The notes beneath the pieces are model-generated. The model was not told the DNA's origin, made no database searches, and was given only the letters and a program-made list of their open reading frames with translations. Shown piece by piece: positions 41,716 through 46,107 of a stretch of 58,112 nucleotides of DNA (its first letter is position 1; each line of letters begins with the position of its first letter). The position numbers and the translations under genes are program-made. The DNA is taken from contig VMGD01000009.1 in NCBI GenBank assembly GCA_007376405.1, forward strand, positions 1-58,112. Reading direction: 5' to 3'. This DNA is from Microgenomates group bacterium Gr01-1014_7. GTDB taxonomy: Bacteria; Patescibacteriota; Microgenomatia; Daviesbacterales; UBA10151.

Positions 41716-41743
41716 TTGACAAATAGAATTTTTATGATATACT
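41716..41743 (+). promoter_or_regulatory. sigma70-like promoter with extended -10 (TTGACA-16-TGaTATACT)
   Basis: TTGACA at 41716-41721, TG at 41735-41736, TATACT at 41738-41743. Confidence 0.6.
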
Positions 41744-41749
41744 AATAAT

Positions 41750-42012
41750 TACAACTAAATATTTAAAGGCGTTTTACTGGAGTCACGATCCAGGAGCCGA
41801 GAGCCAAAATGCTCTACGGAATGATCTAAGCCGTAAAAAGATAGACAGACGATGTTGGAAAACCAAAGTCGCCACTAAGAGTCATGTATCAGAACGGTAC
41901 ACGGAAAACAGGATGGGACCGCGGGAGCGGTCTTTTTATTTTTAAAAAGACACCTCTCGTTCCTTGTTCATTAGCCTTTATGGGTTAGTGATCAGCGAAC
42001 GGGAGGTTTTTT
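41750..42012 (+). promoter_or_regulatory. T-box riboswitch-like leader, predicted tRNA-His specificity
   Basis: AGGAUGGGACCGCG (41910-41923) matches the T-box sequence at 13/14 positions. Antiterminator: AGGA/UCCU, 7-nt bulge UGGGACC, GCGGGAG/CUCUCGU. Competing 10-bp helix 41953-41962/41997-42006 plus U6 sequesters GGGAGG. Hairpin 41777-41795 displays CAC. Confidence 0.7.
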
Positions 42013-42028: not shown

Positions 42029-42841
42029 ATGAAAACAAACGATAAAAAAACAGAATATGAATTCACAATCCTCCGTCCCGGAGGAAATGATCAAATGCTT
42101 ATACAGGGGCTTGTTCCAAAAAATAAAAAACGCTTGATTAATGATGAAATGATTAAGCGTTTTCCAAATGTGGAGCAGGTTAGTTTCTATGCATTTGATC
42201 GAAAAAATAACTTTGCTACTTTGGAACTTGCCGGAGGTGAATTTTGTGGAAATGCCACCAGATCACTCGCCTACTTACTTTTAAATGGCAACAAAGGAAA
42301 AATAAAAATTAAAGTTTCTGGTACAAAAAGAGTTTTAAATGCTGGAATAAATCAAAAAAATACTGCATTTGCCCAAATGCCAATTTCTAATCTGAAATCT
42401 TTTACAAAACTCAAAAGTAATTTATTCAGAGTAGATCTAGAAGGTATTACCCAATTGGTTTTTGTACAAACTAGACAGATTAATCCTAGTAATCTCAAGC
42501 GTTATGCTCTTAAACTCCTACAACAAGAAAATCTAATTTACTCAGTTCCAGCTGCCGGGGTAATGTTCATTACCGATTGGGGTGAATATATTGAACTTAA
42601 ACCTATTGTCTGGGTTAGAGATATTGAAACACTACTTTACGAGACAGCTTGTGCTAGCGGAACAGCTGCTGTAGGAATTTGGAAAGCAACCCAAAGTAAA
42701 GCAACCTCTACACAAGTTAAAATTTTGCAACCTTCCCTCAAAATTATCACTGCTGAGATTTATAAAGATAGCGATGACTTAGTGGATGTGTATATAGATG
42801 GAGATATAGAAATCCTGGAAAAAGGAAGTGTGGGATTATGA
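42029..42841 (+). CDS. DapF-fold two-cysteine PLP-independent racemase/epimerase-like protein
   Basis: LRPGGNDQMLI, AGGEFCGNATRS (first Cys) and YETACASGTAAVG (second Cys). The alternative TTG start is 42011. Confidence 0.7.
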   Translation: MKTNDKKTEYEFTILRPGGNDQMLIQGLVPKNKKRLINDEMIKRFPNVEQVSFYAFDRKNNFATLELAGGEFCGNATRSLAYLLLNGNKGKIKIKVSGTKRVLNAGINQKNTAFAQMPISNLKSFTKLKSNLFRVDLEGITQLVFVQTRQINPSNLKRYALKLLQQENLIYSVPAAGVMFITDWGEYIELKPIVWVRDIETLLYETACASGTAAVGIWKATQSKATSTQVKILQPSLKIITAEIYKDSDDLVDVYIDGDIEILEKGSVGL

Positions 42842-43653
42842 ATGAGTTAGTTGAATTAACTTTATATAATCTTGAACAACTTGAGCAAACTGGTAGACCT
42901 TTACCAGCTAGAGAAGAACTAAAGAGTAGATTAATCGAACTTGCAGAAAGTAGATCGGTTCCTGTAGTTGTATTTAATTGCTTAAATCCTGATTGGAGAC
43001 CGGGTTCAAAACGGGATTATCCAAAAGCAGCATTCTCTTTTAATCCTGAAACTTCAATCTGCAGATATTATCAAGATTATGTAGCGATCACTTTGCTCGC
43101 ACTTCAAGACCTGGGAACTCCAAATCTAAATATTGTTATACCGGATAGTGAACTACTGGATGAAAGGGTTTTTTCTTTCGCTCAATCCAAAGAAGAAAGA
43201 ATAGATACAAGTCTAAGTGCAAAATCAGCATTATCCTCTGTTCTGACAGAATTAGATAATCCGGAGCAAGCAGTAACTCTTTGGAGTGAATATTGTGCAG
43301 GGCAATCACTCAAAACTCCCTTTGAATATACAACTGAAAACTATCGTAGGATCCAGTCGGATCCTGGACTGCAGAAAAAAGTACAAGATCAAATAAAAGA
43401 TTCCGCAAGATTTTTTGATAAAAAAGGTGTTAATTTTAAAAAAATTGATCCAAGGGTAATTTATGAACGGATTGCCTGGTATGAGGCAATGTATATGGGT
43501 GAAGGTCAGGCTCTTTTGGAATCTGGGGCTATTGTATTAAACTTTGAAGATAGTCGAATTGCCGCCTGGTTTCAACGAGGAGCAGATAGCAAATTACCAA
43601 TATTAACCCCTGTCAATGCTAATGATTTTTACGCCTGGAGAAGAAAAAGTTAA
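42838..43653 (+). CDS. hypothetical protein (271 aa), translationally coupled to the racemase-like gene
   Basis: ATGA overlap. No recognisable motif. Confidence 0.7.
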   Translation: MNELVELTLYNLEQLEQTGRPLPAREELKSRLIELAESRSVPVVVFNCLNPDWRPGSKRDYPKAAFSFNPETSICRYYQDYVAITLLALQDLGTPNLNIVIPDSELLDERVFSFAQSKEERIDTSLSAKSALSSVLTELDNPEQAVTLWSEYCAGQSLKTPFEYTTENYRRIQSDPGLQKKVQDQIKDSARFFDKKGVNFKKIDPRVIYERIAWYEAMYMGEGQALLESGAIVLNFEDSRIAAWFQRGADSKLPILTPVNANDFYAWRRKS

Positions 43654-43670
43654 GGGTTTGGTGATATGAT

Positions 43671-44267
43671 ATGACTATGATTAAAGTACCGCCAATACCA
43701 AAAAAGAGAATAGCAATTTTTATAGATGCTGCTAATTTTGAGATCAGCCTGAAGCAATGTGGTCTGAGGGTAGATTATAAAAAACTTTTAACTGAATTCC
43801 GAACTAAAGGAAAATTAACCATATTAAGATATTACAGTCCTGTCTTTAAGACTAAGGGACAGAATCGCTTTTTCTCCTTTATAAAAAATCAGGGCTTTAA
43901 AATAGTCACTAAAAGTATTAAGGTTATTAGGAAACGCAATAAAAAATCTCAAAACAAAGCTAATTTTGATGTTGAGATAACCTTTGATGCGGCTGTCAAT
44001 ATAGGCAAATATGAAACTATGATACTTTTTTCAGGAGATTCCGATTTTGTTTACTTAGTATCTCAGCTGAAAAAAAGTAGCATTACTACTACAGTAATCT
44101 CGCCTCAGTGGCGGACAGCCAGAGAGCTTAAAAAAGTTGCCGATACATTTATTGATTTACGGGAATGTGATTTTGTCATTAAAAAGCCCCCTTTCGGGGG
44201 CGCTCACAACAGCCTTTCGACTGCAAAAGCAATATACAACAAAAAAGGAGAAAAGTCAAGTGATTAA
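43671..44267 (+). CDS. NYN-domain (LabA-like) protein
   Basis: KRIAIFIDAANFEISL...NFDVEITFDA...MILFSGDSDFVYLV. Confidence 0.75.
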   Translation: MTMIKVPPIPKKRIAIFIDAANFEISLKQCGLRVDYKKLLTEFRTKGKLTILRYYSPVFKTKGQNRFFSFIKNQGFKIVTKSIKVIRKRNKKSQNKANFDVEITFDAAVNIGKYETMILFSGDSDFVYLVSQLKKSSITTTVISPQWRTARELKKVADTFIDLRECDFVIKKPPFGGAHNSLSTAKAIYNKKGEKSSD

Positions 44268-45165
44268 AGCACCGCCAACACCAAAGGGGTTTAGGGATAT
44301 AAAGCCTGAACTTGCCGCAAAAAGACGTGAAACAATAAATAAAATTGCCGGCGTCTTGGAAGAATATGGTTTTATTCCAATTGAAACTCCCACCATTGAG
44401 TTTGCCGAAACACTGGAAGGAAAATATGGAGAAGAAGAAAGGCTGATTTATAAATTCACAGATCGAGGTGGCAGGAATCTTGCTTTGCGTTTTGATTTAA
44501 CAGTTCCTCTTGCCAGATATGTGGCAACTTACAATCCTCCCCTACCTTTCAGGCGTTACCAAGTAGGCCAGGTTTTTAGAGGAGAAAATCCGCAAAAAGG
44601 CAGGTGGAGAGAATTTACTCAATTTGATTTTGACAGTGTTGGATCTAGTAATCCGTCGGAGGATGCAAAAGTTGTAGCTGTTGCCATAAAGTGCATGAGG
44701 AAGCTTGGGTTCTCAAATGCTCAAATGTCTGTTAATGACAGAGCTAATTTTGCAGATTTCCCCTCGGAGATTGTTAGAGCTATAGATAAGCTTAATAAAA
44801 TTGGTGAAGAGGCAGTTTTGCAAGAGCTTGTGAGCAATGGTTTATCCCAGCAGGTAGCCAAGGAGTCTGTTTCTAAAATCAGATCACAAAAACCAACTTC
44901 AAATCTTAAAGATTTGTTTAAGATTCTAAAGGAAGAATATAAATTAGAAGAAGGCAAAGATTTTGCTTTTGATCCTAGCTTAGCAAGAGGTTTGGATTAT
45001 TACACAGGAGCTATTTTTGAACTAAAAGAGGAGAAATATCAAGGTTTATCCATTGGTGGCGGGGGCAGGTATGACAATTTAATTGGAAGTTTTGCCAAAA
45101 AAGATATTCCTGCAGTTGGATTCTCCTTTGGATTGGACAGGATGCTGGAAATCCTCTATCCTTAA
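44260..45165 (+). CDS. hisS: histidyl-tRNA synthetase catalytic core without anticodon-binding domain (HisRS/HisZ-like)
   Basis: LRFDLTVPLARY, FRRYQVGQVFRGENPQKGRWREFTQFDFD (motif 2), GGGGRYDNLIG...GFSFGLDRM (motif 3). GTG start lies 9 nt after AGGAG. The protein ends right after motif 3. Confidence 0.75.
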   Translation: MIKAPPTPKGFRDIKPELAAKRRETINKIAGVLEEYGFIPIETPTIEFAETLEGKYGEEERLIYKFTDRGGRNLALRFDLTVPLARYVATYNPPLPFRRYQVGQVFRGENPQKGRWREFTQFDFDSVGSSNPSEDAKVVAVAIKCMRKLGFSNAQMSVNDRANFADFPSEIVRAIDKLNKIGEEAVLQELVSNGLSQQVAKESVSKIRSQKPTSNLKDLFKILKEEYKLEEGKDFAFDPSLARGLDYYTGAIFELKEEKYQGLSIGGGGRYDNLIGSFAKKDIPAVGFSFGLDRMLEILYP

Positions 45166-45168
45166 AGG

Positions 45169-46107
45169 ATGAGCTCTCAAATAATCACCAAACCACTCCC
45201 TTACATTGCTTTAATACTGGCCCATTTAATTTGGGGTATAAATTTTGTGGTGGCTAAAGTTACTTTGCAGGAATTCCCACCCATGAGTCTGGCACTTTTG
45301 CGTTTTGCTCTTGCTTCCCTTTTTTTGGCCCCATTTTTTTTCGCTCAAACCAAAAAAATTAAAATAGACAAAAAAGATTTACCCGCCCTTATTGCAGTTG
45401 GTGTTTTTATTATCACTTTAAATATTGCCTTTTTCTTTGAAGGCATAAAGCGGACCACAGCCATAGACGCCTCGGTTTTAACCCTGATTATTCCCATTCT
45501 TTCGGTCATCATAGGCTGGTTATATTTCAAGGAAAAAATATACCTGGTTAATCTGGCGGGCGTTGCGGCAGCCTTTTTAGGAGCGCTGATTATCATTGGC
45601 CTGCCTCAATTTTTTACGGGTACATATTCTACCCAAATGCTTTTGGGTAATATTTTAATAATTCTGGCCTCAATTTCCTGGGTAATAGGGGCAGTTATAT
45701 CCAAAAAAGTCCTCACCAAATATCCCTCACTGGTAGTTACTGCCATTGCCTTTATGGTGGGAACTGTGGCCATGCTTGTTCCGGCAGGCCTTGAGTACAT
45801 AAAAAACCCATCCTGGCCCGGCCAAATTACTATTTTGGGTCTAATGGGTCTAACCTATATGACTCTTCTCTCCTCCATCTCCGCTTATTTTCTGTTTGAA
45901 TGGGGCCTTTCCAAAACCACCATCACCGCAGCTGATTTATTCCAGTATATTGAGCCCTTTATTGCAGCTTTCCTGGCAGTAACCATACTGGGTGAGCAAC
46001 TTTCCACTTCCTTTTTAACCGGAGCCTTTTTAATTACCATTGGAGTATTTTTAGGAACCCTGGCCAAAGCCATCCACCGCAGACACCACAAAGCGCACAG
46101 AGTGTAG
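45169..46107 (+). CDS. EamA/DMT family transporter
   Basis: 10 TM helices with an EamA duplication. Confidence 0.8.
   Translation: MSSQIITKPLPYIALILAHLIWGINFVVAKVTLQEFPPMSLALLRFALASLFLAPFFFAQTKKIKIDKKDLPALIAVGVFIITLNIAFFFEGIKRTTAIDASVLTLIIPILSVIIGWLYFKEKIYLVNLAGVAAAFLGALIIIGLPQFFTGTYSTQMLLGNILIILASISWVIGAVISKKVLTKYPSLVVTAIAFMVGTVAMLVPAGLEYIKNPSWPGQITILGLMGLTYMTLLSSISAYFLFEWGLSKTTITAADLFQYIEPFIAAFLAVTILGEQLSTSFLTGAFLITIGVFLGTLAKAIHRRHHKAHRV

Follow-up and report, generated by a model that had tools for sequence, protein, structure and literature searches.

A histidine-linked operon under a tRNA-His-type switch in a Microgenomates bacterium, with a racemase-like gene and a gene of a new family at its core

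Two-cysteine histidine racemases of the HisR and CntK types, the fold of the cyclodipeptide synthases (CDPSs), T-boxes with a truncated Stem I and T-box-regulated operons of aminoacyl-tRNA synthetases (aaRSs) were all known before this work. In lactobacilli, histidine decarboxylase clusters reportedly combine a histidyl-tRNA synthetase (HisRS) gene and a T-box in a cluster handling free histidine, where the partners are a decarboxylase and an antiporter. CntK-type racemases feed opine metallophore synthesis (PMC11602996, PMC7438024), and His-containing cyclodipeptides are made with a canonical CDPS in candidate phyla radiation (CPR) bacteria (PMC7613923). Here, a locus of Microgenomates group bacterium Gr01-1014_7 was studied. 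It lies on contig VMGD01000009.1, in a stretch of 58,112 nt that was analysed as a whole and is called the window below. According to the list of open reading frames (ORFs) and a reading of the sequence, the locus comprises four genes, g1 to g4, all on the + strand at 42029-45165, preceded by a strong promoter and a leader of ~250 nt (Table 1). The first encodes a probable histidine racemase, the second a protein of a new family, the third an NYN-domain protein and the fourth a short HisRS. The original prediction, which was made from the letters of this stretch, had named no described system with such a combination, and our literature search likewise found no published description of a cassette of g1, g2 and hisS or of the g2 family. 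What is new here is the combination and the g2 family.

The analysis established the locus as a histidine-linked operon controlled by a tRNA-His-type switch, with the g1-g2 pair as its conserved core. To compare gene neighbourhoods, the window and 17 other distinct lineages (loci numbered with L below) were read. g1 and g2 were adjacent, and usually overlapped, in the window and in 16 related lineages. Adjacency held at each related locus where both flanks of g2 could be seen. L024 was counted among these 16, even though it begins inside g2, as does L025, and its upstream genes are not visible. The pairing spanned g2 identities from 73% to ~33%, both gene orders, and long (507-743 aa) as well as short forms of g2; in L019 the order was reversed, with g2 followed by a 217-aa variant of g1 and then by hisS. 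Downstream genes were readable in 15 lineages, and in 14 of them the cassette was followed by hisS (the window, L001, L003, L004, L007, L008, L010, L011, L013, L018, L019, L023, L024 and L025), whereas the contigs of L012 and L021/22 ended before that point. In L005, a short-form hisG (L005:7020-7713) stood in the hisS position and was followed by the contig end; this hisG was frameshifted into ORFs of 48 and 202 aa, reflecting either an assembly error or a pseudogene. Synteny of g1 and g2 homologues with hisS and with His T-boxes was seen in many further loci, the point on which the original prediction had been staked beforehand.

Two types of regulator were found ahead of the cassette, and they never occurred together at any locus. 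The His leader was present upstream in seven lineages (the window, L001, L003, L005, L010, L013 and L020), and in L020 the His T-box stood directly ahead of g2. A gene for a TrpR-related protein of the YerC/YecD family (TIGR02531, 80.5 bits against a cutoff of 42.2) was located just upstream of g1 in nine loci (L004, L007, L008, L009, L011, L012, L016/17 and L022). This protein may be a histidine-responsive repressor, which would provide a ligand for an uncharacterised family. Additional genes were coupled to g2 in several loci: one for an M15 VanX-type dipeptidase, which matched VanX and the E. coli-type D-Ala-D-Ala dipeptidase model, in L003; one for a PF00144 AmpH/D-aminopeptidase-like protein in L012 and L016/17; and one for a DUF6282 protein in L011 and L021/22. 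The M15 and PF00144 proteins belong to D-stereospecific peptidase families.

The NYN gene g3 was found in only two loci, the window and L010 (L010:1632-2234), at the same position, and was absent from the other related loci. The conserved unit is thus the g1-g2 pair and not a set of four genes, as had been supposed at first, and the NYN gene is a sporadic accessory insert. The two NYN proteins were 73% identical, whereas the flanking g2 and HisRS proteins of the same loci were 51% and 49% identical, respectively, which may reflect either a transfer of the NYN gene between lineages to one and the same slot or an unusually strong constraint on it.

The T-box came to light only in a narrow scan and through the orthologous leaders. 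No T-box was reported by Rfam at the gathering score, nor at E values up to 10 over 900 nt of the window. A narrow scan of the window leader gave RF00230 at 16.9 bits (E 0.077), and the gathering score of 93 bits was not reached. The same model scored 46.8 bits (E 3e-7) on the orthologous leader of L005 and 42.2 bits (E 3e-8) on that of L013, and the window leader was plainly homologous to the orthologous leaders, with a mean column identity of 70%. RNAalifold predicted 56 pairs from four leader sequences, 14 of them with compensatory changes. In the structure as read out, 93% of cells paired, compared with 33-46% in slid controls, and nine pairs covaried.

The specifier loop GUCACGA, in which the codon CAC is followed by G, was unchanged across six lineages, while its stem covaried between lineages (CUGGA/UCCAG, CUGAA/UUCAG, UUGGA/UCCAA and GGAA/UUCC). 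CAC is complementary to the GUG anticodon, and UGGG in the bulge of the antiterminator pairs with a C73-CCA (CCCA-3') end, as in tRNA-His; the tRNA-His genes found in L001 and L003, with a GTG anticodon and a CAGCCAC-C end, match both the specifier and the bulge. Stem I is a 5-bp hairpin, and ~75 Stem I positions were deleted in the Rfam alignment; a long Stem I bearing both a specifier internal loop (with S-turn and codon plus purine) and a distal platform for the tRNA elbow was not found in this leader. The discriminator half was canonical when compared with the published elements (RRRxG, Stem III, AA, helix A1, a UGGN-ACC bulge and helix A2 with a G.U pair; PMC7583486). An invariant AAGAG (RRRxG) preceded a variable Stem III, which was followed by AA. 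AGGA-UGGGACC-GCGGGAG at 41910-41927 pairs with CUCUCGU-UCCU at 41954-41964, forming helix A1 (AGGA/UCCU), the bulge UGGGACC and helix A2 (GCGGGAG/CUCUCGU); the antiterminator paired fully in all five aligned leaders, and the first A2 pair was G.U in each of them. The terminator helix was obtained from RNAalifold, carried compensatory changes in its upper stem and was followed by U6. The terminator and antiterminator are mutually exclusive, CUCUCGUUCC being common to both. From these sequence features, the leader probably works as a tRNA-His T-box; within the family, it is a truncated-Stem-I variant that fails the curated score. The putative His T-box of the original prediction stood in its defining elements, which were legible and backed by the scores of the orthologous leaders, but it proved to be atypical, with a window copy below threshold.

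Two further features of the leaders were observed. A second terminator-like hairpin, GACCGC-GGGA-GCGGUC with a U-run, at 41917-41937 shares sequence with the T-box bulge and with the 5' arm of helix A2; in the other leaders this region takes a different register, GGACC-GCGGGA-GGUCC with U6. Three structures may therefore compete within the leader, and it may carry two stop signals in tandem. A tRNA-His(GTG) gene that encodes G-1 and C73 was located in L001 and L003 (L001:5095-5169 and L003:5103-5178), a few nt past the T-box terminator and ~20 nt ahead of g1. Because this leaves no space for a promoter of its own, the tRNA-His in these loci would arise by read-through of a switch that is itself controlled by tRNA-His, so that an autoregulatory loop is possible.

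The g1 protein carries the motifs EFCGNATRS and ETACASGT. HisR (NF052224; E 2e-24, 86.5 bits) and CntK (NF033599; E 3e-24, 85.9 bits) were its top NCBIfam families, though their equivalog cutoffs of 400 and 300 bits were not reached, and relatives of g1 carried a precomputed PF26317 (CntK_N) assignment. Over its full length, g1 aligned with HisR of F. nucleatum (9CR1/9CR6; E 8e-17) and CntK of S. aureus (6JIS; E 9e-14) in the PDB. The catalytic cysteine motifs EFCGN and ETACASG aligned with C67 and C209 of HisR, and three Glu residues aligned as well: that two positions before the first Cys, that three positions before the second and that of VEQV. HisR E65 and E206 and the equivalent of CntK E46 are the proposed imidazole-binding residues (PMC11602996). 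Both motifs, EFCGN and E-x-x-C-A-[ST]-G, were intact in all 120 g1 homologues listed. DapF was rejected as an identity for g1, since TIGR00652 gave 19.4 bits against a cutoff of 114.65. By sequence, g1 is probably a HisR/CntK-type cofactor-independent two-cysteine histidine racemase, as its initial description as a DapF-fold two-cysteine protein resembling CntK had suggested. Because it reached only ~86 bits against the two cutoffs, it forms a separate subfamily beside HisR and CntK. A shorter variant of 217-224 aa with the motifs ELCINGT and ETACGSGS was encoded in L018:31-705 and L019:847-1500; it paired with g2 once from upstream and once from downstream.

For g2, no match was found in Pfam, NCBIfam or PADLOC. 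When 38 members of its family were searched against Pfam with E values up to 10, none matched, the CDPS and DIT1_PvcA families included, and a profile/sequence search of the PDB found no CDPS. The family is small, with 38 clusters at 90% identity and 65 at 50% identity among 1.84 billion representative proteins. Its fold was approached through structure prediction. An AlphaFold (AF2) model built from the family alignment had a predicted local distance difference test (pLDDT) score of 94.6, and Foldseek matched it in the PDB to CDPSs, TyrRS and the isonitrile synthases PvcA (3E59) and PIsnA (9DHM), with E values of 6e-3 to 0.1 and template modelling (TM) scores of 0.40-0.53. A second, independent model, of a 539-aa member ~40% identical to g2, had a pLDDT of 89; its top matches were CDPSs and PIsnA, and the CDPS matches had target-normalised TM scores of 0.50-0.58. 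For both models, the top CDPS matches had Foldseek probabilities of 0.9-1.0 and target-normalised TM scores of 0.49-0.58. On these models, g2 can be placed as the founder of an unnamed family with a Rossmann fold like that of CDPSs and class-Ic aaRSs. The earlier view that g2 could not be placed thus held for sequence, all such searches being empty, but not for structure.

Residue conservation was counted over 92 members of the g2 family. The most conserved residues were E105 (92/92), Y219, E222 and E237 (91/91 each), C48 (89/90), N47 (88/90), and W149 and Y215 (89/92 each); N47 and C48 thus form a near-invariant Asn-Cys dyad. In the g2 model, these residues lie where the parallel strands reach their C-terminal ends, or on the long helix that precedes the penultimate strand: N47-C48 follows strand 1, Y215/Y219/E222 lie on that helix, and N235/E237 come after the penultimate strand. 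The order of secondary-structure elements corresponds to that of AlbC, one for one. From this order we infer that N47-C48 would occupy the place of the catalytic Ser of CDPSs and Y215/Y219/E222 that of CDPS Y178/E182; profile comparison shows no sequence similarity between g2 and CDPSs. A CDPS of Parcubacteria binds the His side chain through two Tyr and one Glu (PMC7613923), and the invariant Tyr/Tyr/Glu set of g2 looks similar by analogy.

About half of the clusters of the g2 family were long forms (P0041, P0046, P0050, P0054, P0062 and ~25 others; L011:2395-4626 and L016:3841-5364). These have a conserved N-terminal domain of ~240 aa with the motif SRPPGGGPVQK and weak winged-helix matches. 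The domain is mostly very basic, with an isoelectric point (pI) of ~10 or above (10-10.7) in three of the five examined. Three long forms also have a C-terminal domain of ~245 aa whose strand/helix pattern resembles a second g2-like domain; no Pfam model was found for either the N-terminal or the C-terminal domain. The long forms were rejected as g1-g2 fusions, the N-terminal ~240 aa being unrelated to g1.

The coordinates of the features are collected in Table 1. The gene coordinates and both overlaps given in the original prediction were borne out by the ORF list and by reading the sequence directly: the overlap of g1 and g2 at 42838 is TTATGAATG (ATGA), and that of g3 and g4 at 44260 is GTGATTAA. 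The GTG start of g4 is supported by the agreement of orthologue N-termini. The promoter matched the consensus at 11 of 12 positions, was the top site of the region and lies ~285 nt upstream of g1; a TTGACA/TATACT-like pair also precedes the orthologous leaders in L001, L003, L005 and L020.

Table 1. Features of the histidine-linked locus (positions in the window)
Feature	Position	Strand	Description
Sigma-70-type promoter	41716-41743	+	TTGACA, 16-nt spacer, TG-extended TATACT
tRNA-His-specific T-box-type leader, truncated Stem I (putative)	41763-42012	+	RF00230 weak score, orthologues, covariation
Specifier hairpin	41777-41793	+	CUGGA-GUCACGA-UCCAG; CAC (His) codon 41784-41786 in 7-nt loop
T-box discriminator/antiterminator	41910-41964	+	Helix A1, 7-nt bulge, helix A2, read from sequence
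Intrinsic terminator	41953-42012	+	5' arm CCUCUCGUUCC = 3' arm of antiterminator; ends in U6
g1 (probable racemase)	42029-42841	+	270 aa, ATG start at 42029
g2 (new family)	42838-43653	+	271 aa
g3 (NYN)	43671-44267	+	198 aa
g4 (HisRS)	44260-45165	+	301 aa, GTG start at 44260
EamA-family transporter gene	45169-46107	+	PF00892 E 4e-46; 4 nt past g4

Past g4, the gene order is eamA, rpmE, prfA and prmC. This stretch was checked for an intrinsic terminator, and no convincing one was found. Because eamA begins 4 nt after g4 and no convincing terminator stands between them, eamA is probably co-transcribed with g1-g4, and the transcription unit probably extends past 45165, where a four-gene operon had been predicted to end. 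An eamA gene was located downstream of hisS, at a distance of one to three genes, in L001, L003, L007, L008, L010, L013 and L024 as well. The G+C content was 34-37% in g1, g2 and g3, 42-46% in the leader, eamA, rpmE and prfA, and 40.8% in the whole window.

The g4 protein matched the HisRS catalytic core (PF13393, E 2e-45) and passed the cutoff of TIGR00442 (290.5 bits against 286.75). It aligned with positions 2-312 of the 406 of this profile, and the next gene follows 4 nt later. Because the match stops at position 312, g4 lacks the anticodon-binding domain (PF03129). It keeps motif 2 (FRGEN..GRWREF), HisA (LARGLDYYTG), HisB (GGGRYD) and the motif 3 Arg (GFSFGLDR), as do its full-length relatives, and the identification as a class II HisRS core was confirmed. 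More than 120 clusters of ~300 aa were 68-81% identical to g4 and, where named, came from Ca. Daviesbacteria or Microgenomates; in databases, they were called histidine--tRNA ligase or HisZ ('ATP phosphoribosyltransferase regulatory subunit'). Given these clusters, the short HisRS is the normal hisS product of Daviesbacteria/Microgenomates and not special to the operon, and its presence suggests a Daviesbacteria-like genome as the source of the window. No paper on a CPR HisRS lacking the anticodon-binding domain was found in the literature, and such an enzyme would be a natural minimal synthetase in wide use.

HisZ, the regulatory subunit of short HisG, was considered as an identity for g4. 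The two are alike in that g4 has ~300 aa, the HisRS catalytic fold and no anticodon-binding domain, and in that some database records call its homologues HisZ. However, g4 passes the hisS cutoff and fails that of hisZ (TIGR00443, 184.8 bits against 271.65), keeps the catalytic motifs and occupies the syntenic hisS slot, and the 58-kb window contains neither hisG nor a second hisS. HisZ was therefore rejected.

The relationships of g4 did not follow those of the cassette. It was 67% identical to the short HisRS of L008 (L008:5330-6277) and 48-53% identical to the full-length enzymes of loci with a closer g2, indicating that the hisS type and the cassette have discordant histories. Of the 13 related lineages in which hisS comes after the cassette, a full-length HisRS was present in 10 and only the start of the gene was visible in two; L008 alone had a short one. 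This contradicts the suggestion that the products of g1-g3 act in trans as partners of a truncated synthetase, which was rejected. As for g3, its product is a LabA-like NYN (PIN-like) nuclease-domain protein (PF01936, E 3e-29, 102.8 bits against 24.2; FIDAAN and SGDSDF present), as had been predicted. A role as a defence system was rejected, a generic NYN domain being the sole match.

The reading favoured here, tentatively and at a little under an even chance, is that the locus is a cassette for histidine supply or quality control that is induced by histidine limitation and feeds HisRS. The T-box and YerC/YecD are the kinds of regulator that govern amino-acid supply genes, and together with the D-stereospecific peptidase families coupled to g2 and the likeness of g1 to histidine racemases, they point to the acquisition of L-histidine for HisRS. 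In this mechanism, uncharged tRNA-His would stabilise the antiterminator, and transcription would then enter g1, g2, the NYN gene, hisS and probably eamA, the functional core being the g1-g2 pair ahead of a housekeeping HisRS. The g1 product would interconvert D- and L-histidine, so that D-His, for example that freed by the D-stereospecific peptidases of sister loci, could be fed to HisRS. Because a racemase alone is enough for D-His salvage, g2 would have to do something else; a histidyl ester as its substrate is suggested by the fold, by the Cys dyad and by the linkage of the gene to hisS and tRNA-His. It may be a CDPS-fold enzyme, with the Asn-Cys dyad at the nucleophile place and a Tyr/Tyr/Glu-rich pocket, that acts on a histidyl ester or amide via a covalent Cys (thioester) intermediate. 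In the preferred version, it would hydrolyse D-His-tRNA(His), acting as a chiral proofreader and so rendering a His racemase in the cytoplasm safe. In the second version, it would open the ring of, or hydrolyse, a histidine conjugate such as His-diketopiperazine; CPR organisms make His-containing cyclodipeptides, as stated above.

Several points weigh against this reading. The salvage of D-His by g1 would be enough by itself and does not require g2. The equivalence of C48 to the CDPS Ser comes from the order of secondary-structure elements and not from superposition. When the 92-sequence g2 profile was compared by hhalign with AlbC, Rv2275, YvmC and BtCDPS (the AlbC sequence being an exact match to 3OQV), the probability was 0.06%. 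The Foldseek matches of g2 are weak (E 6e-3 to 0.1, TM 0.40-0.58), isonitrile synthases, which use no tRNA, match it about as well as CDPSs do, and the short g2 proteins are acidic overall, with a median pI of 5.1. In L016/17 (Ca. Roizmanbacteria), the cassette has no adjoining hisS. Most of the loci belong to related CPR genomes that have flanking synteny in common (dnaB ... hisS-eamA-rpmE-prfA), so that part of the hisS linkage may have been inherited rather than selected. Finally, the loci were read as stretches, and dtd, histidine biosynthesis genes or a second hisS elsewhere in these genomes would lie outside the view.

A more far-reaching form of the proposal, which we consider unlikely, is that g2 represents a third functional class of class-I-aaRS-fold proteins, Cys-dependent, specific for histidyl-tRNA(His) and in obligate pairing with a histidine racemase. 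It would then be either a D-His-tRNA(His) proofreader or a tRNA-dependent D/L-histidyl transferase, and the unit, including in some genomes the tRNA-His gene, would be autoregulated by tRNA-His via the minimal T-box.

Of the alternatives to the supply or quality-control cassette, tRNA-dependent biosynthesis survived best, improbable as it still seems to us. Here g2 would be a divergent CDPS-like transferase that moves histidyl from His-tRNA(His) onto Cys48, the product being a His diketopiperazine, a histidyl peptide or a cell-wall addition. The g1 product would supply or set the D-configuration, the peptidase-like proteins would tailor the product, and hisS, sometimes with tRNA-His, would be co-transcribed to replace the drained His-tRNA, the drain being sensed by the T-box. 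The top-ranking fold matches of g2 with a known non-translational role are indeed CDPSs, which use aminoacyl-tRNA; there is tight linkage between the cassette and hisS, joined in two loci by a tRNA-His gene; the basic N-terminal domain of long g2, with its weak winged-helix matches, fits nucleic-acid binding; and peptides with D-residues are the substrates of some PF00144 and M15 enzymes in cell-wall and peptide metabolism. Canonical CDPSs of CPR bacteria also yield cyclodipeptides with His (PMC7613923). However, a consumer of His-tRNA placed behind an uncharged-tRNA-His switch would deepen starvation, g2 has no CDPS sequence signature, and the locus is a housekeeping one (hisS, rpmE, prfA) in genomes of very small size. 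We know of no CDPS cluster with a racemase of the g1 type.

It is somewhat less probable that g1 and g2 are mere hitch-hikers, that is, that the T-box belongs to hisS alone and that g1-g2 (with the NYN gene) were inserted in a CPR ancestor and then inherited, with a function not specifically tied to histidine charging; g4 might then even be HisZ-like. The loci are not independent, as their common flanks demonstrate, g1-g3 have a lower G+C content than their neighbours, and NCBI gives the HisZ name to some short HisRS proteins. Yet the linkage outlasts the inversion in L019 and three inserts (NYN, M15 and DUF6282), and it holds with either type of regulator, either type of hisS and either the long or the short form of g2. 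Moreover, the T-box of L020 directly precedes g2, the partner in L005 is hisG, another histidine gene, and the active-site residues of g1 point to histidine, while the HisZ idea meets the evidence on g4 given above.

Small-molecule chemistry without tRNA, in which g2, as an isonitrile-synthase-like (PvcA/IsnA) or other amino-group-modifying enzyme on D-/L-histidine, would join g1 in making a histidine-derived metabolite, for example a metal-binding one comparable with the product of CntK in staphylopine synthesis, for export by EamA, is about equally improbable: PvcA and PIsnA are among the best structural matches of g2, with TM scores equal to those of CDPSs, CntK-type racemases do feed metallophore synthesis, and an EamA gene is usually near, but g2 does not match the DIT1_PvcA Pfam family, none of the loci has cntL- or cntM-like genes, a tRNA-His sensor and constant hisS linkage are unexpected for a metallophore pathway, and eamA lies within the conserved housekeeping string after hisS and so may be inherited.

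CPR bacteria have tiny genomes and are mostly unable to make amino acids. The locus bears on how they secure each amino acid, since a conserved and regulated gene pair stands directly ahead of the histidine-charging enzyme. One of the two products is a likely histidine racemase, and the other belongs to an uncharacterised family with a predicted fold otherwise employed by enzymes handling aminoacyl-tRNA. Should the pair convert D-histidine or conjugates of histidine to correctly charged tRNA-His, it would be a new salvage or quality-control route, and a g2 that proofreads D-His-tRNA(His) would let a minimal cell live on racemic histidine. If g2 instead consumes His-tRNA, it would be a new class of tRNA-dependent biosynthetic enzyme. 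With this leader, the T-box family gains a minimal design that has its specifier in a hairpin loop and that standard models miss.

Two observations on the sources of the loci should be added. A scan of GTDB species-representative genomes gave one contig only, that of L001. L001/L006 (GCA_964547465.1, CAZJNI010000011.1) is labelled 'uncultured Gammaproteobacteria bacterium', but its gene content and synteny match those of the CPR loci, and the label is therefore probably wrong. In L004, the gene after hisS (L004:8263-8784) encodes a protein of 173 aa, the N-terminal domain of which is cyanophycin-synthase-like (PF18921, 27.1 bits, at the cutoff).

When the components are compared with known systems, the leader comes closest to the truncated-Stem-I T-boxes of the actinobacterial ileS type (PMC7583486). 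Both have a short Stem I without a distal tRNA-elbow platform, Stem II and Stem IIA-like helices after Stem I, and a canonical discriminator in which the bulge N matches the tRNA discriminator base. In contrast to the ileS examples with truncated Stem I, which are translational, the His leader is transcriptional and has a terminator. Its specifier stands in a simple terminal loop of 7 nt above a 5-bp stem, its Stem II is no longer than 5 bp, has an A-rich loop that is invariant and shows no evident S-turn, and an additional terminator-like hairpin is able to sequester the bulge. It also differs in its tRNA-His specificity, its CPR origin and a score far under the Rfam threshold. Truncated Stem I and T-box control of aaRS operons being already known, it is the minimal hairpin-loop specifier design that is new.

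Like HisR (9CR1/9CR6) and CntK (6JIS), g1 has the DapF-like fold over its full length, both catalytic Cys and the three Glu. Its context is new: g2 is always its partner, its control is histidine-responsive, hisS is usually adjacent, and its loci have neither cntL/cntM nor the aminodeoxychorismate neighbours of hisR. The predicted g2 structure resembles the CDPSs (AlbC, YvmC, Rv2275 and ParcuCDPS) in a Rossmann-type fold common with class-Ic aaRSs, the same strand/helix order, conserved residues at the C-terminal strand ends and, by element order, a candidate nucleophile-type residue after strand 1 and a Tyr/Glu-bearing helix ahead of the penultimate strand, and linkage of the gene to an aaRS and a tRNA is a further likeness. 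It differs from them in having no detectable sequence similarity in Pfam or by hhalign, Cys in place of Ser, a beta-hairpin after strand 1, a conserved set of its own (the eight residues counted above) and a limited structural match. Finally, the partners that accompany hisS here are a probable racemase and a CDPS-fold protein, unlike those of the lactobacillar histidine decarboxylase clusters, and hisS itself is apparently the housekeeping copy.

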